Assembly (NCBI GenBank): GCA_051294905.1
Contig: CM119371.1
Location: 4,094,001 to 4,158,000 of the forward strand
Direction: 5' to 3'
Source: Botryllus schlosseri
Lineage: Eukaryota
Length of the DNA stretch: 64,000 nucleotides
Of the stretch, positions 4,444-62,818 are shown in pieces (the first letter of the stretch is position 1; each line of letters opens with the position of its first letter). A model generated the notes under the pieces. The model saw only the letters and a list, made by a program, of their open reading frames with translations, did no database searches and had not been told where the DNA came from. A program made the translations under genes and the position numbers.

Positions 4444-5366
4444 CAGTGTTGGGATGACTCGAGTCATGACTTGACTCGAGTCAGACTCGAGTCACCTTTT
4501 TCGCATGACTTGACTTGACTCGAGTCACTTTGCTAAAATGACTTGACTTGACTTGACTCGGCGTATCAAAAATGTGGATTGACTCGTGACTCGGAGCAAA
4601 ATCCACGAGTCAATTTCAAGTCATCAACTAATCGTTGTCGATAAAAATCACTGTATCTTGCTAATCTTGCATATGTTCGGATTGCTCGCGAAATGCTGGT
4701 TTAACCCGTGAGAGCGACCAATCACTCAATGATCGCGCCTTTTCATGAGCCTGCATTGTTCTCTCACAAGTAAACGACCACAAACTAAGTGATCTAAGCT
4801 TACAGCTTACGTTGTCGTAAAGTAGTAGTAACCAAACCTCTTGTCTGATTGATATTGAATTCGAATACTGTTCAACCATTGGCGCAGGCTTGAATTGTAT
4901 CATATCAATATGTAAATGGGTAATGTATTGCATCTTATCAATTAGTTTATCTATTCTCTATTTTGGCTGGTAATTATAAACTGAGGCTAAGCAATTACTT
5001 ACGTAGTTTAACAGTTCTATACGTATATATGAGCGATACATCGCCTTATTTGGTGTATATTTAACTCTATATTCGTTCATCGGTTCGGAATCAATGACCA
5101 CTCGAACTGTATTTCAGACAGCTAGCAAAATGCAATGACGTAATCATGCCTCATACTTCGAAAATGCAACTTGACTTGAATTGTGACTTGACTTGTGACT
5201 TGACTTGACTTGACTCGACTTGACTCGAGTCACCTCCAAAATTCGAGTGACTTGACTTGACTCGAGTCACCTTCGAAAATCGATTGACTTGACTTGACTC
5301 GAGTCAAAATGTGTAATGACTCGAAATGACTCGTGACTCGAAGGTAGTGACTTGATCCCAACACTG
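4444..5366. mobile_element. hAT MITE with (GACTT/GACTC)n subterminal arrays, copy 1
   Basis: TIR CAGTGTTGGGAT ... ATCCCAACACTG; perfect TSD GAAGAGAG. Confidence 0.9.
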
Positions 5367-5643
5367 GAAGAGAGATCGATAGGTCAGTCGTGGTCCGGTA
5401 ATCTTGAGGATGGACTGTATAGATTAGAAGTATAGATTACTAACCTCCGAAAGTTAGTAATCTATTGCAAAAGTATAATTCAGATTACTGTTATTAAAAA
5501 GAAGAAGCTATATACTTTATTACATAACCTTTTACCAGTGTCAAAGACTAATACCAATTATCCCACGCGACTTGTATTTCTCAATTTGCGAATTATCATC
5601 AAATTATCTCTCTGGACTAGACACCGAGAAATTAGGATGTTAC

Positions 5644-7753: not shown

Positions 7754-8768
7754 ATGTTACCGTCACCGCTCATGATCAGTTCCGCTATTATAATTCCATC
7801 TGTTTTTCCTGGGGACCTCAACGCTTGCGTAGCCGAGATGTTAGGGCTTGGAACCACTCTTTATTTCAAACTCAAATCACCGTTGTTTGAAATTCAGATT
7901 TTATCTCTAACATTTCGTAGCTGATGTACAATTGAGCAATTAGAAACGAACATGTATACGTGTGTTGGCCTCATCGCTTGACGAAATGAATCTCTCCTTC
8001 TCACAACGCCAAAAGTATAAATATGCCACCGGTTGTTCTCAATTAGCATTTTGAAACGGTGGCATAGTCAGTTTTGGTGAATGATAGAGACTTTTACTCA
8101 AAATATTAAACTTCCTTAATATTTATCCTACGGCAAGAGGTTGCCAGTATCAAAATACCTATCCTTTTAAGCAGTTACGCTGCTTACTCAAGCGACCCTG
8201 TAATAGACTACTACTAAACAGTTTTCCAGCAACACCACTTATTTGACGCACTTGGTATCTTGACAAGTAGCCTACAACGTATTTTTAAGATAAAATTATC
8301 TTGACAACTGGACGAAACACTCCTTTTACCACGGTAACTGAATATATCTCGCAACTATTTGACATTTTTGGTCATCCACGAAGATCCATCTTGTGAGTTG
8401 CGATTTCAAAAATAGACACTGCAGATAGAACTGCTTATAATTGACACCTCAGCCATATCAACTTTTTGAAACTTCAGTACTTTTAAGATCTTCGATTGTG
8501 CTTGCCTAATGAGATGTCTTCAAGATTACTAGTTCTACTCGTAATTCTGTGGAAATGTACCTCGTGATCTCAAAACGGGTAGCCAGGTCATGACCAGCCC
8601 TGCACGCCAAAAAACTGTAAGGTCGAAAACAAAGCCACGGCACAAATTCAATCCGACCCACGATCTCTTTGGATAAATACAATCAACTCATTTTACAAGA
8701 GAAAGGCGTCCCTTCAAAAGCTGCTATGGATATACAAGACACAACAATTCGAAGTCATTTAACACTAA

Positions 8769-52618: not shown

Positions 52619-53977
52619 ATGAAAGATCGTCTGTGCGATATAGCCAAGAAACCACTTTCTCAAAAAGTTAACCGCAAGCCTAATATTTGTGCGCATGCTG
52701 GCATCATTAATCGTGACTGTGATATATGTGGTAAATCATTCACTTGGAAGAGTCAGCTCAAGTCTCATATGGATATACATATTGGCGCTAAAAAGCACCA
52801 ATGTGATATATGTGGAAAAGCATTCTCTGCCAAGGGAATCCTTGGATGTCATATGAATACGCATGCTGGCGTCAGAAATCATAAATGTGATATATGTGGG
52901 AAATCATTCATTCGGAAGGGCCACCTCTCAGTTCACATGGATATGCATGCCGGTACCAAAAATCACAAATGTGATGTTTGTGGGAAAGCATTCACTTGGA
53001 AGAGTCAGCTCAAGTCTCATATGGATGTACATATTGGCGCTAAAAAGCACCAATGTGATATATGTGGAAAAGCATTCTCTTCAAAAGGAATCCTTGAACG
53101 TCATATGGATGTGCATGCTGGCGTCAAAAATCATAAATGTGATATATGTGGTAAATCATTCATTCGGAAGGGCCACCTCTCGGTTCACATGGATATGCAT
53201 GCCGGTAACAAAAATCACAAATGTGATGTTTGTGGGAGATCATTCACTAGGAAGGAAGAACTCACGCACCATATAAAATTACATGTCGGTAACAAAAATC
53301 ATAAATGTGATATATGTGAAAATTCATTTGTGCACAAGAGTAGCCTCAACAAACATATGGATATCCATGCGGGGGTGAAAAATCACAAATGCGATATATG
53401 TGGAAAAGCATTCACTCAGAATCGCCAGCTCTCACTCCATATGGATATGCATGTTGGTATGAAAAATCATAAATGTGATGTTTGTGGGAGAGCATTCACT
53501 CAGAAGGGAGATCTCACGCACCATATGAAAGTGCATGCTGGTATAAAAAATCATAAGTGTGATATATGTGGGAATTCATTTGTGCGCAAGTATAGCCTAA
53601 ACAAACATATGGATATCCATGCTGGCGTAAAAAATCACAAATGTGATATATGTGGAGAAGCATTCACTCAGAAAGACAACCTCAAGCGTCATACGAAAAT
53701 ACATGCCGGTAACAAAAATCATAAATGTGATATATGTGGGAATTCATTTGTGCGCAAGGGTACCCTCAACAATCATATGGATATCCATGCGGGTGTGAAA
53801 AATCACGAATGTGATATATGTGGGAAAGCATTCACTCAGAAGGAAACCCTCAAGTGTCATATGGATATGCATGCTGGAATCAAGAGGCATAAATGTGATA
53901 TATGTGGGAAAACATTTAGTCAGAAGGGCCACCTCATGCGTCATATGGATATGCATGCTTGTAACAAAAAGCAATAA
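52619..53977 (+). CDS. C2H2 zinc-finger protein exon, 15 tandem fingers
   Basis: 28-aa repeats CDICGKxF..L..HM..H with AGxKNH linkers; upstream exons not identified. Confidence 0.9.
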   Translation: MKDRLCDIAKKPLSQKVNRKPNICAHAGIINRDCDICGKSFTWKSQLKSHMDIHIGAKKHQCDICGKAFSAKGILGCHMNTHAGVRNHKCDICGKSFIRKGHLSVHMDMHAGTKNHKCDVCGKAFTWKSQLKSHMDVHIGAKKHQCDICGKAFSSKGILERHMDVHAGVKNHKCDICGKSFIRKGHLSVHMDMHAGNKNHKCDVCGRSFTRKEELTHHIKLHVGNKNHKCDICENSFVHKSSLNKHMDIHAGVKNHKCDICGKAFTQNRQLSLHMDMHVGMKNHKCDVCGRAFTQKGDLTHHMKVHAGIKNHKCDICGNSFVRKYSLNKHMDIHAGVKNHKCDICGEAFTQKDNLKRHTKIHAGNKNHKCDICGNSFVRKGTLNNHMDIHAGVKNHECDICGKAFTQKETLKCHMDMHAGIKRHKCDICGKTFSQKGHLMRHMDMHACNKKQ

Positions 53978-55030: not shown

Positions 55031-56966
55031 GTGGACATATGAGTATGCGACAGACACTTGAGCATGTGCGTTGAATTATAGGTTTGGGGTATATATCGGG
55101 GTTAATTTCAGGGTTGTTTCGTGATAGGGTTGATTTTAGGGTTATAAAGTCACATTCTGAGCTGTCGTTTTCGATTGTGTCGCATGCTCATATATCAGGC
55201 AACTAGTTTTGACATCTTGAAAATCGCTAGCCTTACCGCTAAATTCAGTAGAAATGTACGACGTAACCTCCACTCAAATAGCACCGCCGACTAATTTATA
55301 CCAATCATGTAAGCCTCAAAACACTTTCATTATTGACCATCATTAGATAAGAGTGAGACAATTGAGTATATAATGATGCCGAGAGATTTGTTTCACCCGA
55401 GCAGGGTTGTAACAAAATGACCCGAACTCGAGACTGAGCAGTAATCCAGACTAGTCACCAAACATACCATAGTGAGACACAGTATGACTTGGAATCGGAT
55501 TTGACTCGGTGGTGAGTGGACAATGAGTGGACTTAGTTTTCGAGTTAAAACTATAAAAGTGAGACGGACTTCTGACCGGTAACCTTGTGGCTTGGTTACA
55601 GCCCTGATGATAAGACAATCCGTTGTAAAGCTTGGTGATCTCATTCGTAAATGTATGAACGTATTGCAAAATCCAATTACACAATCACACAAAGTTGCAT
55701 CGAGCGTATCGCGAATGATCTGCTCAAGTAGAGTCTTCGAACAGGAGTCTTTCCAAGATACAATCTGCGTATCACAGGCAAGCTCCTAAACTGTGATTGT
55801 ATTCGTCCTTATGTAACAGTTCCAATTTGTAGTTAGTGAAGTTACGTTGCTGGTCCATGTAAGTCACGGCGCCATCAGAGGTCACAGAATCACTTTGGTG
55901 TAGTCCTGCACGATAGAAAAATATATTGAATTACTCAACATACTCATGCACAAGTAGAAGTAACGACACTAATTTATACTCGGTTACACGCAGAAGTACT
56001 CCTCCCACTTTTATCCAACAGTGTTTTAACCAATAGGCTACTTAATTTTTATTACGTTGGATTTCGTAAAATATAAAGTGATTCTGGGATATTTTCCGAT
56101 CACTATTATGATTGATATTGTCACAACAATTAAGACAAAGTGTCCCATGTAGCATGGTAAGTGAACATATCTCCGTAAATTGCATCGACCGGTAATGGCG
56201 GTAATGTCATCAGTTATTTGTGTTAGTCGAGAAGATGAATCTCGCAATTTCGAGTCATTAAGTCATTATCCCTGTTGATTTGAGTTCAAGTCACTATATT
56301 TTTTTAAATCCAGTCACTTTACTTGATTTTTAAAAGGTACTCGATTCAAGGCAAATCACTCCATTTTAATTGACTCGAGTCGCATTATAAAAAATTTGTA
56401 GTTTACTCGAGTCAAGACAGTCTGCTTCCAAGAGTGACTTGATAGTCTAGTCACTAACTTCAAGTCACAAGTAACATCAACTCATTACATATTTTGAGTG
56501 GATTCAAGCCCAGTTACTCCATTTTTGGAGGCGATTCAAATCAATGTCAAGTTGAGTCACTCGATATTCTAAGGTAGAGTCAAGTCATGACACTACCTTA
56601 GAGGAAACATTAGGTTATTACACATTTCGACCCGAGTGAAGTCAAGTCATTAGGTCAGCGGTTCTCAAGTCGTTGCATGACAGTCTTTCTCCGGTTGGAA
56701 AACTTGGATCCATTATTTGGCGCATAAAATTTGTCTATACTTTTAGATTAGGAGTCCACTTTGACGGCAGAAACTCTCTGCTGGCCGATCAAAATGACGT
56801 CGCGGGCCCAATCCGGCCTGCGGTCCGTATGTTGCCCCTCGCTGCGCTAGATGCTGGATGTGATATGTTCAAAAAATATATGTTTCTTCATTTTGGCGCC
56901 ATAAATGTTACGATCACACCAAAACTATCAGTAGTTAAGTAGATCTCTCGCATGACGCCATTGTGG

Positions 56967-57230
56967 CTTATGGCGGGGTGGTGAGCGGCTGGAAAACCGG
57001 GGGTGGTGAGCGGCTCCTTATACCTTATGGCGGGGTGGTGAGCGGCTATTGCGTCTTATGGCGGGGGTGGTGAGCGGCTCTTATTTCTTATGGTGGGGGT
57101 CGTGAGCGGCTGGAAAACCGGGGGTGGTGAGCGGCTTTTATGTCTTATGGCGGGGGTCGTGAGCGGCTATTGTGTCTTATGGCGGGGCGACATGCGGCTA
57201 TTGCGTCTTATGGATGTGGTCGTGATTCGT
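56967..57230. repeat. G-rich tandem repeats in the presumed Polinton TIR
   Basis: About 8 units containing GGGGTGGTGAGCGGCT or variants, mostly preceded by TTATGGC. Confidence 0.85.
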
Positions 57231-57511
57231 ACTTTCGGGTATATACATCTCTCGACTGGTGTTGAATATGTATCGAGTAAATAGTCATGTGAATGAATCT
57301 TTGTTAATGTGTATATCGTAAATTATTATATATGATGTAGTTTAGTCGTGACAAATGACCGATCGTGTTCTCTTTCGTCGCTATTGATTGCTAGCTGAAT
57401 AATACTTCAGATCGGATTATTCGCACCTTGTATACCGCTGTTTCGCACCTATAGAATAGTCTGCTGTTCACAGTCGCAACAAGAATCACAAGTATACACA
57501 TTACACATTCA

Positions 57512-57517
57512 TTTATT
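57512..57517 (-). terminator. Polyadenylation signal of the Polinton structural cluster
   Basis: AATAAA overlaps the protease TAA stop and is followed by a GT-rich tract. Confidence 0.55.
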
Positions 57518-57959
57518 ACTCTGAAATCAAACTCTTCACAAAAGCACGCACAATCGTATCATTCACTTTTTTATCATCCCCAAAATTATTCAAGTATTCC
57601 TTGGCTGAAAATCCTTGTGCTCTTTTAATCAAAAATGCAATAGCATGATCTCCACACACATCTGAAGTTTTACTCTGTAGCTGTTTCCCAGTCACGGAAA
57701 ATTGATCCGGCTCCAGGAATTCGATTATCTGAGGTTTTAGCGGTCCGAAACCTAGCGAATCATCAAAATGAGTATCGTCATCTCTGTATATACACACCCA
57801 GTGAGATCCAGGCAAACTCGATTCATCGTAATTAATGGTGATAGCGAATTTTCCACTAGTTGGTTTCTTCGGTAGCTGATCTACTGGATAAGTTCCTAGA
57901 TATAGACTTTGTGTGTCAGGATGGTTATAGAGAATATCATTGATCTCAGACGTATTCAT
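57516..57959 (-). CDS. Adenain-like cysteine protease (maturation protease)
   Basis: GSHWV (His), HFDDSLG (Asp), QLQS..DVCG (oxyanion Gln, Cys); likely start MNTSEI at 57959 overlapping the MCP stop (ATGA). Confidence 0.92.
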   Translation of the reverse strand: MNTSEINDILYNHPDTQSLYLGTYPVDQLPKKPTSGKFAITINYDESSLPGSHWVCIYRDDDTHFDDSLGFGPLKPQIIEFLEPDQFSVTGKQLQSKTSDVCGDHAIAFLIKRAQGFSAKEYLNNFGDDKKVNDTIVRAFVKSLISE

Positions 57960-59227
57960 ATTTCGACGACTTGTCTTTTTTGATTCAACTGTAGAAGATG
58001 TTGAAACTCCTTCAAACATAACAAGGTTACGGAGGTTGGTAAAGGCTTCGACGTAGTCAAAACCAGATGCACAGTTCCTGTCTTATGAAGTTGATAACAT
58101 CCCAAACTATTATCGGGTGTCAAATCAAACACAAAAAGAGTGTATCCATTGACATAATCTTTGCGTGGAATATTTAAAGGTGCCTCGGATTCCCAGCGAC
58201 CTGTCTGAGAGAATAGTGTCATATAACCTTCGAGTCCGCCATGTTTATCAAAATCGAAATGAAATTCGCGTCCGTTAATTTGACGCCCATCCACACTTAA
58301 CGAAAGATTTTGAACATCAAAGTGTTTAAAGTTGAATGGGTTTTTGGTCCGAACACCGTTAAATGTCGTGGTCTCGACTAAACCAATTACGATCTTCTTT
58401 GGCATGGTGCCGCTAACTAACTCTCTATCAATTTTCGACAAACCCGCCGCGAATGTATGAGTCGACATTTGTAAGCGTATCCAGGGATACTTTGCAGTAT
58501 TCTTCTGTAATACAGACTTGTGTGCTAAGCTTACACTTTCGGCGATCTTCATCTGTTTGACATACACTTCCATTTCGAGTAAAACAATTTGCACATCCTC
58601 CACATCACCGAGCAGACAGAAATTATCTTCGTTACGTGTAAACTTTAATTTCATGTCGACATTATCCAACATACATCTAGACTGTTCAAAAAGACCCATT
58701 CGAATTTTTCCGATCAACTCTAGCGGAGTGCTGTTTTTTGTAAGGTCTTTTCGTTTAACATAGCCAGTATTCGCTGCACCAAGAACATCCATAGATCCAG
58801 CGACGTCTTTATAAAAACCTTGGCCTTGCACAAAACTCTCCGAGGCCCCGTGAGTATCATTCAACAACCGAGAGATATAAGCTTTGTACGCATGACAATT
58901 ATCCGAATTTGTGATAACCTCATTTGAAATAGTTACATCGATTTGTTTGAAAAGAGAATCCAACATGTTATTGACCAGGCCCACTTGTGTATCGTTTGCT
59001 AAATCAGTTCCATCGCGTTTAGTGAGCTTCAAACGTAATCTCAAGAATGTGTTTTGTAGATCCATATATCGATCCGTCCTTGGTAATTGTACTTCCATGA
59101 CATTACCTAAACTATGGGGTTTGACGACGACATATTGCGATTCCTCAATACTGGTTTGTGTGTGGGGTATACTAAATATGTTTAATCCAGAGTTATGACA
59201 TTCTCGGGAATCCGCATGCATCAACAT
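57956..59227 (-). CDS. Major capsid protein (double jelly-roll, hexon/PY-like)
   Basis: 423 aa; N-terminal C..S.L.IF..P.TQTSIE, NNMLDSLFKQIDV, AYKAYI, KNPFNFKHFD and GYTLFVFDLTPD motifs typical of Polinton MCPs. Confidence 0.92.
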   Translation of the reverse strand: MLMHADSRECHNSGLNIFSIPHTQTSIEESQYVVVKPHSLGNVMEVQLPRTDRYMDLQNTFLRLRLKLTKRDGTDLANDTQVGLVNNMLDSLFKQIDVTISNEVITNSDNCHAYKAYISRLLNDTHGASESFVQGQGFYKDVAGSMDVLGAANTGYVKRKDLTKNSTPLELIGKIRMGLFEQSRCMLDNVDMKLKFTRNEDNFCLLGDVEDVQIVLLEMEVYVKQMKIAESVSLAHKSVLQKNTAKYPWIRLQMSTHTFAAGLSKIDRELVSGTMPKKIVIGLVETTTFNGVRTKNPFNFKHFDVQNLSLSVDGRQINGREFHFDFDKHGGLEGYMTLFSQTGRWESEAPLNIPRKDYVNGYTLFVFDLTPDNSLGCYQLHKTGTVHLVLTTSKPLPTSVTLLCLKEFQHLLQLNQKRQVVEI

Positions 59228-59232
59228 AGTTC

Positions 59233-59604
59233 TTAGTCGAATATATCCTGTTGTTTACGACGACGTTTGGATGAAGTGTTCTTTGACTTTGTTTTTTTCC
59301 TTTTTATAGCTTTTGGGGTTAAAATTTTATCAATCACTCGACCACCAGCTTGTTTACTTCTCTTGACAACACTAGACTTGATCGAGTTACCCCGTAATAG
59401 ATCTCTCGCTATTTCACCTCCAGTCCGTAACAATTGACCACCAGCGTATTTCGCAATAGGTGTCACTAAACGACCGAGTGATTTAAACAAACTCCCGATA
59501 CCGGAACCGGCTTGAACTCCACCACTGAAATATCCATAACCATCACCTGTCTGGTTATAATGACGATGGACAGAATGATGATCACACGTGAAAACAACTT
59601 TCAT
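59233..59604 (-). CDS. Putative protease-processed virion core/membrane-lytic protein
   Basis: QxGxG motifs followed by the amphipathic stretch GIGSLFKSLGRLVTPIAK; K/R-rich C-terminus. Confidence 0.75.
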   Translation of the reverse strand: MKVVFTCDHHSVHRHYNQTGDGYGYFSGGVQAGSGIGSLFKSLGRLVTPIAKYAGGQLLRTGGEIARDLLRGNSIKSSVVKRSKQAGGRVIDKILTPKAIKRKKTKSKNTSSKRRRKQQDIFD

Positions 59605-59996
59605 AATCGCTTCCTAATGTTAAATGTAGCTTGCAATGAACGACTTATTATATTTATAGGTTCCCCAAACTCATCCCTGAGGTAAAGACATACAGAATCT
59701 ACAACATCTTTTGAAACAGGGAAATAATACGGGTTTGTCGCTGTCCAATTATGTGCGACATCACCATGTGTCAGCGGTATAACTCGTAATAAACGCGCTA
59801 ACGTATCTCCAAGTAAGTGAGGGTGAATAATATCGCAATACACAAACAAATATTGACCAATCGCCGGTTCGGTTAAAGTGAAATCGATCTCCATGAGGGC
59901 TAATTCACAATATCTCGTCGGGATGTTGTTGATGGTGAGTAGTCTGTGTTCAAAATCAGCACCAAGCATAGAGGTGGTTAACGTCACTATTTTCAT
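59601..59996 (-). CDS. Minor capsid (penton) paralog 3, minimal (131 aa)
   Basis: ELALME..YLFVYCDII.P..LGD..ARLLRVI..NPYYFPV..YLRDEFGEPI. Confidence 0.8.
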   Translation of the reverse strand: MKIVTLTTSMLGADFEHRLLTINNIPTRYCELALMEIDFTLTEPAIGQYLFVYCDIIHPHLLGDTLARLLRVIPLTHGDVAHNWTATNPYYFPVSKDVVDSVCLYLRDEFGEPINIISRSLQATFNIRKRL

Positions 59997-60664
59997 CGTG
60001 CGTGGAGTGTCAATGTGGTCTCTATATCATGTACTAACTGACCGTATTGGTCCCGGATGGTGATTTTTATATCGCGGATGTGGTTAATCGACACTGGGAA
60101 ATAAAACGGTTTTTCATATACAACTTCTTGTCTCATACACGTCTCGTTATTTACTTGGATCACACGAAGCAATTGACTCATGTAATCACCCACCGGATGA
60201 TGTCGTAGTACATTGATATACACAAAAAGATATCTGAGGTGGGGTTGAGTTGGTTTAGGTTTGATCGACGTCGCATTACATACTGGTGTCGACACTTGAT
60301 CAACTACACTGAAATAATTCGTGAATATATCCGTGGGGTGGAGTGTGATACGTTTCGGGTAACGAATTCGGAAAAGTTCATCGTTGATTCTTTCGGTGAA
60401 ACAGTGTTTGAAACTGTCAGATAATATTCTTCGCGTCAACTCGAGGTTGTTTGCATAATTCCCAAGTGGTGTTAGGTACGCTTCTACTATTCGATCTTTC
60501 TCATTATGTAGCTCCCAGAGTGCTTGATCACGATTGATTATAATTCGATCAAGAGATTCACTGACAAAACTCATATCCATCAACGCAAGCTCATTACAAA
60601 TAATTTCATTCGGTAACACCACCGTGAATTCACCTTTGGTGCCAGACAACGTGATGTAACTCAT
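59993..60664 (-). CDS. Minor capsid (penton) paralog 2 (223 aa)
   Basis: ELALMD..YLFVYINV..VGD..QLLRVI..KPFYFPV..ITIRDQYGQ..LTLH. Confidence 0.8.
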   Translation of the reverse strand: MSYITLSGTKGEFTVVLPNEIICNELALMDMSFVSESLDRIIINRDQALWELHNEKDRIVEAYLTPLGNYANNLELTRRILSDSFKHCFTERINDELFRIRYPKRITLHPTDIFTNYFSVVDQVSTPVCNATSIKPKPTQPHLRYLFVYINVLRHHPVGDYMSQLLRVIQVNNETCMRQEVVYEKPFYFPVSINHIRDIKITIRDQYGQLVHDIETTLTLHAR

Positions 60665-61491
60665 ATTGAATCAACAGCTCTACGACGGAAGCGTAGGGTT
60701 ACTGTCACTGGTGCTTTTCGAAATTTAATAGGGTTGCCAGCTGCATCACGTAGATAAATTCGTATCGTTCTAAAATTGTTTCTCGCTAAAGCAAAGAAGT
60801 ATGGTTTTGGGAATATGTTGATTTGGTTTTCATTCGGTTTAGCGGTTACAGTAACCACCCGTAAAAGTTGTTGCAGCTTGTTACCATGTGGTCTTGGTTG
60901 TATCAGATCGCAATACACATAAACCTTATCAATCCGTTCCAACTTTATCGCAGGTGTAAATATAAATTCCACCACTCCGCGGCGACGAGATACAACGCGT
61001 CTAAATGTTATTGTGTCCAACACAGAACCAAGCGGTATCAGTCCGTAAGGCTCGGGTGAATCATGCGTGGTATGGGGTATGTGTTTGGCGCTAGAGTCTG
61101 CGGTATCGGTATTTATGGGTACACCTCGCTTGTGTCTTTTTTTACTCGTGACTAATCTTCTGAATGTGATTCTAAAGTCACCGAATCCTTGTAAAATGAA
61201 AATGTCCCCCATGTAATATTTCTCGTACGATTCTAGCATTTCACCGATGCTGTAATACGAGCCTTCGGGAATATAATACCGTTCGGTGTATCCATTTGCA
61301 TCGACAAATCCAAAACCTATACTTTTCGCTGTCACTTCAATTCGCGGTTGAAAATCATGTGGGAAGGTCAGCTCACATAATCCCAGCTCATGGCGATTCA
61401 TTTCTAATTCTTTGTAAAGTTCCGTTTGAAAATCTGTGCTAGTATTCGGGAATTTATCCAAACTCGCATTCGAAGGTAGAGTCAACAACAT
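60661..61491 (-). CDS. Minor capsid (penton) paralog 1 (276 aa from the first ATG)
   Basis: LTLPSNAS..FPNT..F.T.L..ELGLCE; IPEGSYYS; VYVYCDLIQP..GN..QLLRVV..KPYFF..IYLRDAAG..VTLRFRR. Confidence 0.88.
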   Translation of the reverse strand: MLLTLPSNASLDKFPNTSTDFQTELYKELEMNRHELGLCELTFPHDFQPRIEVTAKSIGFGFVDANGYTERYYIPEGSYYSIGEMLESYEKYYMGDIFILQGFGDFRITFRRLVTSKKRHKRGVPINTDTADSSAKHIPHTTHDSPEPYGLIPLGSVLDTITFRRVVSRRRGVVEFIFTPAIKLERIDKVYVYCDLIQPRPHGNKLQQLLRVVTVTAKPNENQINIFPKPYFFALARNNFRTIRIYLRDAAGNPIKFRKAPVTVTLRFRRRAVDSI

Positions 61492-61504: not shown

Positions 61505-61738
61505 TCAACATATACGGTGAGGTGATGGATTCGGTAATAAATACCCAAGTGAAGAAGACAGTAGCGTTAAATATATCTCACGATCCACCCCGACAGAAAT
61601 TTGATATAATGAAAACACGATTACACACACTAACATACAAATCTGTACAATAAACACAATCTGGTTTTTCAGACTGTTCGAGACTTGACCCACGCGAGAT
61701 GAGACGGAATCAGAATCCATAGTTTGGTTGAACAACAT
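61505..61738 (-). CDS. Small two-helix membrane protein
   Basis: Hydrophobic IVFIVQICMLVCVIVFSL and IYLTLLSSSLGYLLPNP; fits the gene packing; true start may be the ATG at 61720. Confidence 0.65.
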   Translation of the reverse strand: MLFNQTMDSDSVSSRVGQVSNSLKNQIVFIVQICMLVCVIVFSLYQISVGVDREIYLTLLSSSLGYLLPNPSPHRIC

Positions 61739-61747
61739 TTTCAGCGT

Positions 61748-62818
61748 CTATTTATACAAATCCGAGACCCAGGAGTTAAATGTAGATGGGTAACCCAACC
61801 ATTTTACAAGATATTGCGTTTTCTTTCCTTTCCTGCGAGTAGACAGGATTTTTTCGATATTGTAAATATTATTATTTTTCGTTATTGGTTGTAACTCTTC
61901 ACGCTGAAAGCGACCGTCTATAACTTCACCATGGTAGTCTTTCAATTGATAAGTAGGAGGGTCACCTTTACGACATTGAGATACGAAAAAGATTTCTTCG
62001 GTCCAACTCGCCAAGGCACTTTTTACAAAATTACCACGCGATTTCGAAATCCTGACCGGTGTGCCGATAGTTAGTTTGGGTTTTTTAGGGGTCATGTCAC
62101 CGTATAACCTGTGGAAAATTTGTTCTTGATTTGAATAATCAACATCTGCTGGAGGACACCCTATAGCAACGTGAAAAGTAGTGTTATACCCCCGGCATAT
62201 CTCAGACAGGACACTGACATAATTCAAAGTCTTATTATGCGTGAAATAACGGTATAACACTTGCTTCACAGTACGAATAACACGCTCGCATATCGACGCT
62301 TTCAGTTCACTATTTGTATGAAAATGTCGCACATTGTTCTCTTTTAAGAAAGTCTGAAACGCACGATTAGTAAACTCAGAACCTTGATCACTTTGAATAA
62401 CATGAGGTATACGATCCTTAAATATTTCCTTGAATCCGCGAATAATACCTTGCGAGGTTTTGTTTTTGAGTGGATACAGATATAAAAATCGGCTGAAACA
62501 ATCGATCGTCACCAACACATATTTAAAATTATCGTTTTCTTTTGAAAGATTTTGCATATGCATGAGATCGGTTTGATACTGAACACCGAGACCGGACGTA
62601 ATCACTCTAGGTCTCTTAAATTTCTTTCGATAGGGAAAATGTTTTGTGTACGCGTCCTTGCTCGAAAGAAACTCCTTGACTTTGGCTCTATTCCGCCCTC
62701 TAGAGAATACGTATGCACCGCGATAACTACCGGGTAGCCCTGGCGTGAAATACTTAGTATGGCTCCCATCCGTATCGTCTCGGGGTTTTGGGTGTACGAC
62801 CGCTTTTCGTCGGGGCAT
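61748..62818 (-). CDS. Retroviral-like (RVE) integrase with C-terminal chromodomain
   Basis: QTDLM (D), QSDQGSEF (D), SICERVIRT (E); chromodomain YNIEKILSTR..YLVKWLGYPSTFNSWV. Confidence 0.95.
   Translation of the reverse strand: MPRRKAVVHPKPRDDTDGSHTKYFTPGLPGSYRGAYVFSRGRNRAKVKEFLSSKDAYTKHFPYRKKFKRPRVITSGLGVQYQTDLMHMQNLSKENDNFKYVLVTIDCFSRFLYLYPLKNKTSQGIIRGFKEIFKDRIPHVIQSDQGSEFTNRAFQTFLKENNVRHFHTNSELKASICERVIRTVKQVLYRYFTHNKTLNYVSVLSEICRGYNTTFHVAIGCPPADVDYSNQEQIFHRLYGDMTPKKPKLTIGTPVRISKSRGNFVKSALASWTEEIFFVSQCRKGDPPTYQLKDYHGEVIDGRFQREELQPITKNNNIYNIEKILSTRRKGKKTQYLVKWLGYPSTFNSWVSDLYK

Follow-up and report, generated by a model that had tools for sequence, protein, structure and literature searches.

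Three tandem penton paralogs with a graded loop insert in a Maverick/Polinton provirus of Botryllus schlosseri

The last 7 kb of the window studied here, a stretch of 64,000 nucleotides from Botryllus schlosseri (GenBank assembly GCA_051294905.1, contig CM119371.1, positions 4,094,001 to 4,158,000 of the forward strand; positions below are those of the window), are part of a Maverick/Polinton provirus that lies on the minus strand and carries three adjacent open reading frames (ORFs), which are functional paralogs of the Maverick penton (PX) protein. In capsids whose major protein is a double jelly roll, the penton, a single jelly roll, is the subunit that fills the fivefold corners. All three paralogs would keep a common jelly-roll base and differ in the outward-facing module at the position of the DE loop, which is large, medium or missing. 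We favour, granting it a nearly even chance, the reading that the three proteins are produced together and serve as subunits of a single vertex complex. The three ORFs are:

60661..61491, minus strand: ORF1, 276 amino acids from its ATG, predicted penton-type single jelly roll with a large insert
59993..60664, minus strand: ORF2, 223 amino acids, penton paralog with a shorter, diverged insert
59601..59996, minus strand: ORF3, 131 amino acids, predicted bare single jelly roll with no insert

A sequence-only reading of the stretch had described three adjacent, intact ORFs of 276, 223 and 131 amino acids at 59601..61491, with shared motifs at both ends and a central insert that is long, medium or essentially absent, and these lengths, coordinates and features all hold. 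A longer frame of ORF1, started by a TTG, reaches 61548, where no homolog begins; the homologs start at the ATG at 61491, and the length of 276 amino acids is therefore correct. Pairwise BLASTP comparisons gave E 3e-11 for ORF1/ORF2, E 7e-14 for ORF1/ORF3 and E 3e-13 for ORF2/ORF3, with matches that span the C-terminal 78-102 residues at 29-32% identity; with a similarity far beyond chance, the three ORFs are true paralogs. An N-terminal E-L-(A/G)-L motif is aligned across the ORFs, and likewise the C-terminal motifs VY.D, G(D/N), LLRV, P.(Y/F)F and RD..G. Both the alignment and the order of strands in the models of ORF1 and ORF3 put the insert between the third and the fourth beta-strand, with a length of about 140 amino acids in ORF1, about 105 in ORF2 and about 7 in ORF3.

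The sequence-only reading had taken the three for penton, or minor capsid, paralogs and had expected each to fold as a single jelly roll. We folded ORF1 and ORF3 with AlphaFold2 from alignments of 111 rows, and compared the models by VIA with 48,161 PDB representatives. The model of ORF3 is all-beta (predicted local distance difference test, pLDDT, 92.8; predicted template modelling score, pTM, 0.87), and that of ORF1 reaches a pLDDT of 84 and a pTM of 0.79. The best matches of the ORF3 model are:

Sputnik penton 3j26_N: Z 11.6, 129 aligned residues, root-mean-square deviation (rmsd) 3.2 A
Mavirus penton 6g41_A: Z 11.3, 125 aligned residues
Penton P1 of Paramecium bursaria chlorella virus 1 (PBCV-1), 6ncl_a6: Z 11.2, 129 aligned residues
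Capsid protein of Emiliania huxleyi virus 201 (EhV-201): Z 10.6
PBCV-1 chain 8h2i_bG: Z 9.9
Fowl adenovirus penton base, chain 8roq_M: Z 9.0

These are followed by an iridovirus chain (8hif_y3, Z 7.7) and then by an unrelated fold at Z 6.8. The same six penton proteins come out on top for ORF1, at Z 9.9-13.4 (PBCV-1 P1 13.4, Sputnik 12.4, mavirus 11.8, fowl adenovirus penton base 9.9), and unrelated jelly rolls appear from Z 6.5; the ORF1 alignments extend over 210-237 residues against targets that bear an insert, at a high rmsd (7.5-13.3 A). Foldseek likewise matched ORF1 to the mavirus penton (E 4e-7), and the best match of ORF3 in BFVD is a 161-amino-acid protein of Drosophila-associated adintovirus 2 (E 1.6e-8, TM 0.78). 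Judged from their models, ORF1 and ORF3 are thus predicted penton-type single jelly rolls, as had been expected.

ORF2 is, by full-length homology, a predicted penton-type single jelly roll as well. The group of its seven orthologs aligned with 29 single-copy members of the family from the first to the last strand (hhalign 99.9%, E 3.7e-31, 230 columns), P0026, which represents its cluster, gave an end-to-end match with the family profile (E 8e-58), and an ESM Atlas look-up gave, as a lead only, Sputnik V18/19 as the nearest named cluster. For the ORF3 group hhalign returned 99.5% over 82 C-terminal columns, and the N-terminal strands align in the multiple alignment. ORF1 has 19 homologs at E <= 1.4e-5, and the alignments of 17, proteins of 253 amino acids among them, span 97% of its length; it is the copy closest to the single-copy Maverick PX proteins. 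A 29-row profile of the paralogs and their relatives matched 12,461 clusters at E <= 0.001 and 1,131 at E <= 1e-30 in a library clustered at 50% identity, and nearly all of the 150 listed matches are 240-300 amino acids long. Sequence homology assigns the three ORFs to the Polinton/Maverick PX (penton) family, the name PX being taken from the literature and from the position of the genes. Pfam and PHROGs hold no family for ORF1, ORF2 or ORF3, and a profile search of PDB sequences yielded chance-level rows only (best E 0.27).

It is conceivable that only ORF1, the most canonical copy, is a penton, and that ORF2 and ORF3 reuse the jelly roll as a cement or peripentonal protein, as an assembly chaperone or as a decoy against competing elements. 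According to the alignment, ORF2 and ORF3 have both lost a conserved stretch of about ten residues that follows the first strand; ORF1 has it in common with the wider family, and the part missing from ORF2 holds the family's conserved P-S-N motif. The cores of the paralogs are, moreover, only 29-32% identical, and competition can be imagined in a genome that harbours at least five diverged Maverick families. However, ORF2 and ORF3 keep the most conserved core positions of the family (L-L-R, the G of V-G-D, the Y of V-Y-x-D and the terminal R), which makes a role away from the vertex less likely, and the best structural matches of ORF3 are whole penton bases that cover 119-129 of its 131 residues. 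We know of no example of a penton exapted for a non-vertex role, and we regard this alternative as improbable.

The two models allow the insert to be located. ORF3 has strands at residues 2-11, 16-26 and 30-41, followed by 49-54 and further strands, and ORF1 at residues 2-6, 20-30 and 34-44, followed by 189-194 and further strands. The insert of ORF1 (approximately residues 48-186) is modelled as a mixed alpha/beta fold inside the loop, with a disordered stretch at 115-146 (pLDDT < 50). If the first strand is strand B, the modelled insert would sit in the DE loop. It is this loop that carries an outward domain in the pentons of adenoviruses and adintoviruses and in P1v1 of PBCV-1 (PMC11071296, PMC9617893).

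The array is found repeatedly in this genome of 495 Mb. The near-identical copies of the studied element are here called family A, and their counts, made by hand from match listings, are lower bounds: at least 84 full-length matches to ORF1 (at 94% identity or more), 83 of them without a stop; at least 85 to ORF2, 78 without a stop; and at least 88 to ORF3, 86 without a stop. Family-A copies are 94-99% identical in protein. More distant copies were sampled at nine loci, with one to four loci per family at the codon level, and fall into four further families:

Family B (L011, L012): 277 / 225 or 219 / 130 amino acids for ORF1 / ORF2 / ORF3, orthologs 57 / 52 / 62% identical to the studied element
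Family C (L013, L015): 267 / 259 / 121 amino acids, orthologs 43 / 36 / 37% identical to the studied element
Family D (L014): 267 / 260 / 121 amino acids
Family E (L016-L018, and L019, which is broken): two paralogs of 273-276 / 244-249 amino acids, the third gene absent

The triplet is therefore open in about 85 near-identical family-A copies and in the three diverged families B, C and D; in family B, 13 of 16 listed ORF1 matches are without a stop. Family E possesses two paralogs only, both bearing an insert, and its second penton gene directly overlaps the PW-like gene that follows the pentons. Comparison of the putative major capsid protein (MCP) gives 80% identity for families A and B and 79% for C and D; across these two pairs it falls to 48%, and family E shares 31-35% with the others. 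One genome hence houses five or more Maverick families, whose MCPs are 31-80% identical.

Selection was estimated by the method of Nei and Gojobori for the two pairs of loci with unsaturated synonymous sites (L011-L012 and L013-L015). The ratios dN/dS, in this order of pairs, are:

ORF1: 0.17 and 0.12
ORF2: 0.30 and 0.21
ORF3: 0.09 and 0.00
Integrase: 0.22 and 0.05
MCP: 0.16 and 0.02

Between families A and B, pN is 0.21-0.30 and pS 0.67-0.74. Among the eight best-scoring of the at least 84 family-A copies, pN/pS is 0.08 for ORF1, 0.18 for ORF2, 0.45 for ORF3 (which has few sites) and 0.11 for the integrase. All three paralogs are under purifying selection across diverged element families. The sequence-only reading would have been abandoned had ORF2 and ORF3 turned out disrupted or neutrally evolving in sibling elements; the copies are intact and dN/dS is 0-0.30. 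It had also imagined a heteromeric, switchable or specialised vertex, with paralogs that perhaps diversify receptor use. The pN/pS of the inserts is about twice that of the cores, and all values stay below 1 (0.26-0.64); no positive selection on the inserts was seen, and there is hence no positive evidence for receptor-driven diversification. As an aside, the differences among the approximately 85 family-A copies are mostly synonymous (pN/pS 0.06-0.18 for most genes), which points to a family that diversified while replicating rather than one that decays in place.

These data bear on the possibility that the three genes are redundant duplicates with no separate function, retained only because the element family is young. 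The 94-99% identity of the family-A copies speaks for it insofar as intactness within this family alone says little. On the other hand, all three genes keep open frames in families whose orthologs share only 36-62% identity and whose synonymous sites are nearly saturated (pN 0.21-0.46), the unsaturated pairs give dN/dS of 0.0-0.30, and a single origin of ORF3 is not rejected by the approximately unbiased (AU) test (p 0.535). Neutral redundancy is close to excluded, and we consider it highly improbable.

A tree of 59 rows was used to examine the origin of the triplet. Every ORF1, ORF2 and ORF3 sequence from the genome belongs to a single clade of 22 rows (Shimodaira-Hasegawa-like approximate likelihood ratio test, SH-aLRT, 98), which includes four database proteins: three near-copies of the genome's own genes, and P0029 at the edge of the clade. 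ORF2 of families A-D groups with ORF3 of families C and D (SH-aLRT 94), and ORF3 of families A and B is unplaced; the tree gives no resolution of the order of duplications. Among the 150 listed profile matches, eight were hit in two stretches, and six long proteins were inspected. P0021, P0022, P0024 and P0038 contain two complete penton domains per chain, P0121 appears frameshifted, and P0036 is an integrase joined to one penton domain. The domains of the two-domain proteins fall outside the clade of the genome's paralogs. The halves are sister to each other in P0024 (100) and P0038 (83), and in P0021 and P0022 the first halves pair (99) and the second halves pair (99), in separate clades. 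As these domains lie outside the genome's clade, tandem duplication of the penton gene would have happened several times independently if the proteins are real; some of them may be artefacts of gene calling. In a word-limited search the only short proteins resembling ORF3 were P0169 (96% identical), P0170 (63%, like family B) and P0171, a 125-amino-acid fragment which appears to be the C-terminal end of a longer protein. This search, which gives no gene context, found no triplet outside the studied lineage.

The organization of the genes is equally relevant. ORF1, ORF2 and ORF3 are followed by the PW-like gene, the putative MCP gene and the putative protease gene, and four of the five junctions of this chain are 4-nt ATGA overlaps of stop and start (60661-60664, 59993-59996, 59601-59604 and 57956-57959, within window positions 57956-61491), the fifth being a 5-nt gap. 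ATGA chaining likewise occurs in families B-E, though some junctions overlap by 23-26 nt. We also considered a -1 frameshift that fuses ORF1 to ORF2 and ruled it out: the frame of ORF2 is open for only two codons above its ATG (a frame of 225 codons for a protein of 223 amino acids). Chains of genes joined as tightly as these are uncommon among those expressed in animal cells, and raise the question of whether it is reinitiation or separate spliced mRNAs that allow the downstream ORFs to be translated. A single-cell RNA run yielded 291 reads, nearly all over 57511-58565 and 59410-59620, with a depth of 0-0.85 across the three ORFs; a bulk RNA run yielded 20 partly fitting reads, and contig runs labelled 'RNA?' could in fact be DNA. 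These few RNA reads showed no splice joints.

How such paralogs might be used can have several explanations. We favour a shared vertex because the genes are chained stop-on-start in the families examined, because single chains with two domains, if real, fix both domains at one place, and because co-expressed subunits with the same base are expected to mix in the absence of a sorting mechanism. We infer that all three would enter the virion and share a vertex. Two arrangements can be envisaged. On the one hand, the paralogs could be neighbours within mixed pentamers, in which the bare ORF3 would space the insert-bearing subunits apart. This would resemble the tectivirus PR772, in whose penton base three P5 N-terminal domains combine with two copies of P31, a bare paralog of 126 amino acids, into a heteropentamer (PMC6750898). 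In both cases there are paralogous jelly-roll bases, one bare and of similar size (126 amino acids in P31, 131 in ORF3) and one extended outward; ORF3 corresponds to the bare base subunit, and ORF1 has the same predicted base with an insert of about 140 amino acids. However, the extension of P5 is a C-terminal trimerising stalk with a knob, which creates a mismatch of three on five, whereas the insert of ORF1 and ORF2 is situated in a loop: the ORF1 model has no C-terminal stalk, and ORF2 ends with the jelly roll. Furthermore, PR772 has two paralogs and not three, and their joint use at the vertex is known, whereas here there are genes alone; the profile search of PDB sequences detected no sequence relation between PR772 and the paralogs.

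On the other hand, the paralogs could form stacked rings. The turret proteins A223 and C381 of Sulfolobus turreted icosahedral virus (STIV) form stacked pentameric rings of related jelly-roll domains, with several domains per chain. This turret may serve as a model both for the two-domain homologs and for a stacked triplet, although STIV is an archaeal virus and only a weak structural match (PDB 4ind, Z 5.0-5.3). Fusions that provide two domains in a ratio of 1:1 fit stacking better than mixing, because equal amounts mismatch a planar ring of five.

Several points weigh against the shared vertex, or against its PR772-like form. Contact between the paralogs and the entry of all three into the particle are what we infer, and no Maverick virion has been described (PMC8097293). 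The two-domain database proteins could be artefacts of gene calling, as the apparent frameshift of P0121 illustrates. If they are real, a 1:1 fusion is unfit for a planar ring of five and argues for stacking instead of a mix. The inserts of ORF1 and ORF2 are globular and placed in a loop, and are not the C-terminal trimerising stalk that lies behind the symmetry problem solved by P31. A bare jelly roll can form a whole penton by itself, as the short P1 of PBCV-1 does and the 161-amino-acid adintovirus protein may do, and since family E has only two paralogs, both insert-bearing, ORF3 is dispensable in that lineage. ORF3 also shows the weakest constraint of the three among the eight family-A copies (pN/pS 0.45, few sites), and the predicted fold of ORF2 derives from an alignment.

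Alternatively, each paralog could form homopentamers at different corners, for example at ordinary vertices and at a unique vertex for packaging or entry. The precedent is PBCV-1, in which P1 occupies eleven common vertices and P1v1, with the same base and a much larger DE insertion, the unique one (PMC9617893). Both PBCV-1 chains, 6ncl_a6 and 8h2i_bG, are among the top matches of our models, and the paralogs studied here differ at the same loop as P1 and P1v1, with an insert in ORF1 and ORF2 and none in ORF3. An upstream ORF of the provirus, furthermore, occupies the packaging-ATPase position of Mavericks, to which it is assigned by position only, as Pfam gave no match. Packaging ATPases of related viruses work at one special vertex. 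Nevertheless, PBCV-1 is a giant virus with two penton forms and a spike-bearing unique vertex, whereas three forms are present here and no Maverick is known to have a special vertex. Three kinds of penton would require two kinds of special vertex, no paralog is marked as rare, and the two-domain homologs would deliver their domains in equal amounts, unlike a use of 11:1. We regard vertex-specific pentons as rather unlikely but as a strong rival, and retain the shared vertex as the preferred reading.

The shared vertex invites a broader conjecture, which is speculative and which we think will probably not hold in full: that in some animal Mavericks the corner is an obligate hetero-oligomer of three co-translated paralogs, of which one is a bare spacer, one medium and one long, and that the repeated, independent tandem duplications and fusions elsewhere would represent a general route to turret- or spike-like vertices in small double-jelly-roll animal viruses that have no separate fibre gene.

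The provirus as a whole comprises 15,784 bp and extends beyond the end of the window to base 8713 of locus L009. Its terminal inverted repeats (TIRs) match in inverted orientation over 481 nt at 99.4% identity (57000-57480 of the window against 8668-8188 of L009), both termini begin with AGTAGT, and a 6-bp target-site duplication (TSD), ACTATC, borders each. A 1286-amino-acid ORF in L009, upstream and past the window end, matches Pfam DNA_pol_B_2 above the cutoff. With its protein-primed family-B polymerase, rve integrase, TIRs and 6-bp TSD, the element is a Maverick/Polinton. In addition to the three penton genes, the following features lie within the window:

61748..62818, minus strand: integrase with a C-terminal chromodomain (Pfam rve E 2.8e-16, Chromo E 1.4e-8)
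61505..61738, minus strand: ORF call of 77 amino acids with a hydrophobic segment, between the integrase and ORF1
59233..59604, minus strand: glycine-rich protein of 123 amino acids with a basic C-terminus, between the pentons and the MCP, at the PW position of vertebrate Mavericks
57956..59227, minus strand: putative MCP, 423 amino acids, named from gene order and an ESM Atlas lead
57516..57959, minus strand: putative maturation protease, 147 amino acids, its ATG at 57959 overlapping the MCP stop as ATGA
56930..57480: left TIR, with the TSD ACTATC at 56924-56929

The 423-amino-acid gene is a putative double-jelly-roll MCP on the strength of its place in the gene order and of its nearest ESM Atlas clusters, which bear PF21738 DJR-like_dom (score 0.98, a lead and not a test of fold); neither Pfam nor the search of PDB sequences matched it. 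The glycine-rich protein is PW-like by gene order, is present in all five families with dN/dS of 0.0-0.19, and has no Pfam match. The protein of 147 amino acids, likewise without a match in Pfam, we take to be the maturation protease from gene order and its H/C motifs; its homologs in the other families begin at the ATG corresponding to 57959.

Further observations concern the surroundings of the array. A small hydrophobic ORF upstream of the first penton gene is kept in at least three families: the counterparts of the 77-amino-acid ORF have 77 amino acids in family B (L011 1396-1629) and 65, also hydrophobic, in family C (L013 1425-1622). Its segment probably spans a membrane, and Pfam gave no match. 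The TIRs (56930-57480 of the window, 8188-8713 of L009) hold internal tandem sub-repeats, visible as many staggered self-matches of 65-200 nt at 76-91% identity, and since reads and contigs of other copies break off at 57337, 57407 and 57436, the number of sub-repeats seems to vary between copies. About 3 kb off the left end of the element, a 452-amino-acid ORF on the plus strand (52619-53977) consists nearly entirely of tandem C2H2 zinc fingers and is presumably a host gene. In family E, a gene with a caspase domain (Pfam Peptidase_C14, E 1e-10 to 4e-13) is located downstream of the protease gene and a 111-amino-acid ORF, and at two loci there is also a protein with three BIR (IAP) repeats (E 1.5e-39); the coordinates of these genes are 4827-5552 and 5787-6980 in L019, 5628-6368 in L016 and 984-1709 in L018. 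As the caspase-like and IAP-like genes recur in the same order in several copies of family E, the pair looks like cargo of the element.

Polintons and Mavericks are described with one PX gene per element (Krupovic, Bamford and Koonin 2014, PMC4028283; Barreat and Katzourakis 2021, PMC8097293), in agreement with what the sequence-only reading had assumed. The second module of vertebrate Mavericks consists of the integrase, one minor capsid gene mcp(px), pw, Mcp(py) and the protease (PMC8097293), and the three penton genes of the studied element occupy the slot of the single mcp(px). ORF3 is one gene away from the putative MCP, and ORF2 and ORF1 are directly upstream, as judged by the criterion of MCP proximity (PMC4028283). 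The likeness to Maverick PX is considerable: the same family by profile search, the same place in the series integrase, penton, PW, MCP and protease, and the same predicted single-jelly-roll fold of virophage pentons; vertebrate Mavericks also share the AGTAGT termini and the 6-bp TSD (PMC8097293). The difference is that the studied element has three tandem genes (two in family E) with graded inserts, all under selection.

Nevertheless, the sequence-only reading, which considered the triplet the most unusual feature of the element and called for a check of its novelty, stands in part only. The 2024 preprint 'Widespread Horizontal Gene Transfer Among Animal Viruses' mentions a few adintovirus genomes with 'duplicate Pentons' (Adinto23690, 18043), and reports that some adintovirus pentons are classic jelly rolls without a DE-loop insert, whereas most have a DE insert that is sometimes doubled or tripled (PMC11071296). 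Duplicate and insert-less pentons were hence already known, and the adintovirus protein that is the best BFVD match of ORF3 fits this likeness. However, the preprint lists scattered variants in separate genomes, and we found in it no account of a single element that combines long, medium and bare forms, nor of conservation or selection (PMC11071296); its supplements may hold more. Our literature search for a described multi-penton Maverick found only this remark on duplicate pentons, and a conserved, selected array of three penton forms in one element was not found described in the sources covered.

Animal genomes are rich in Mavericks and Polintons, yet no particle of theirs has been seen, and the current model of the capsid has one major and one minor protein. 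Three conserved and selected penton genes point to a vertex of greater complexity than this two-protein model in one animal lineage or more, and the vertex is the part of the capsid that meets the cell. For annotation this is a warning that 'the' Maverick penton may be a small gene family, and a Maverick with its own caspase-like and IAP-like pair is worth a look as well. With about 85 near-identical copies, four families with a triplet and one with a doublet, the locus is a compact natural system for the question of how penton paralogs share or divide the twelve corners of a capsid, to which answers exist so far only from PR772, a phage, and PBCV-1, a giant virus.

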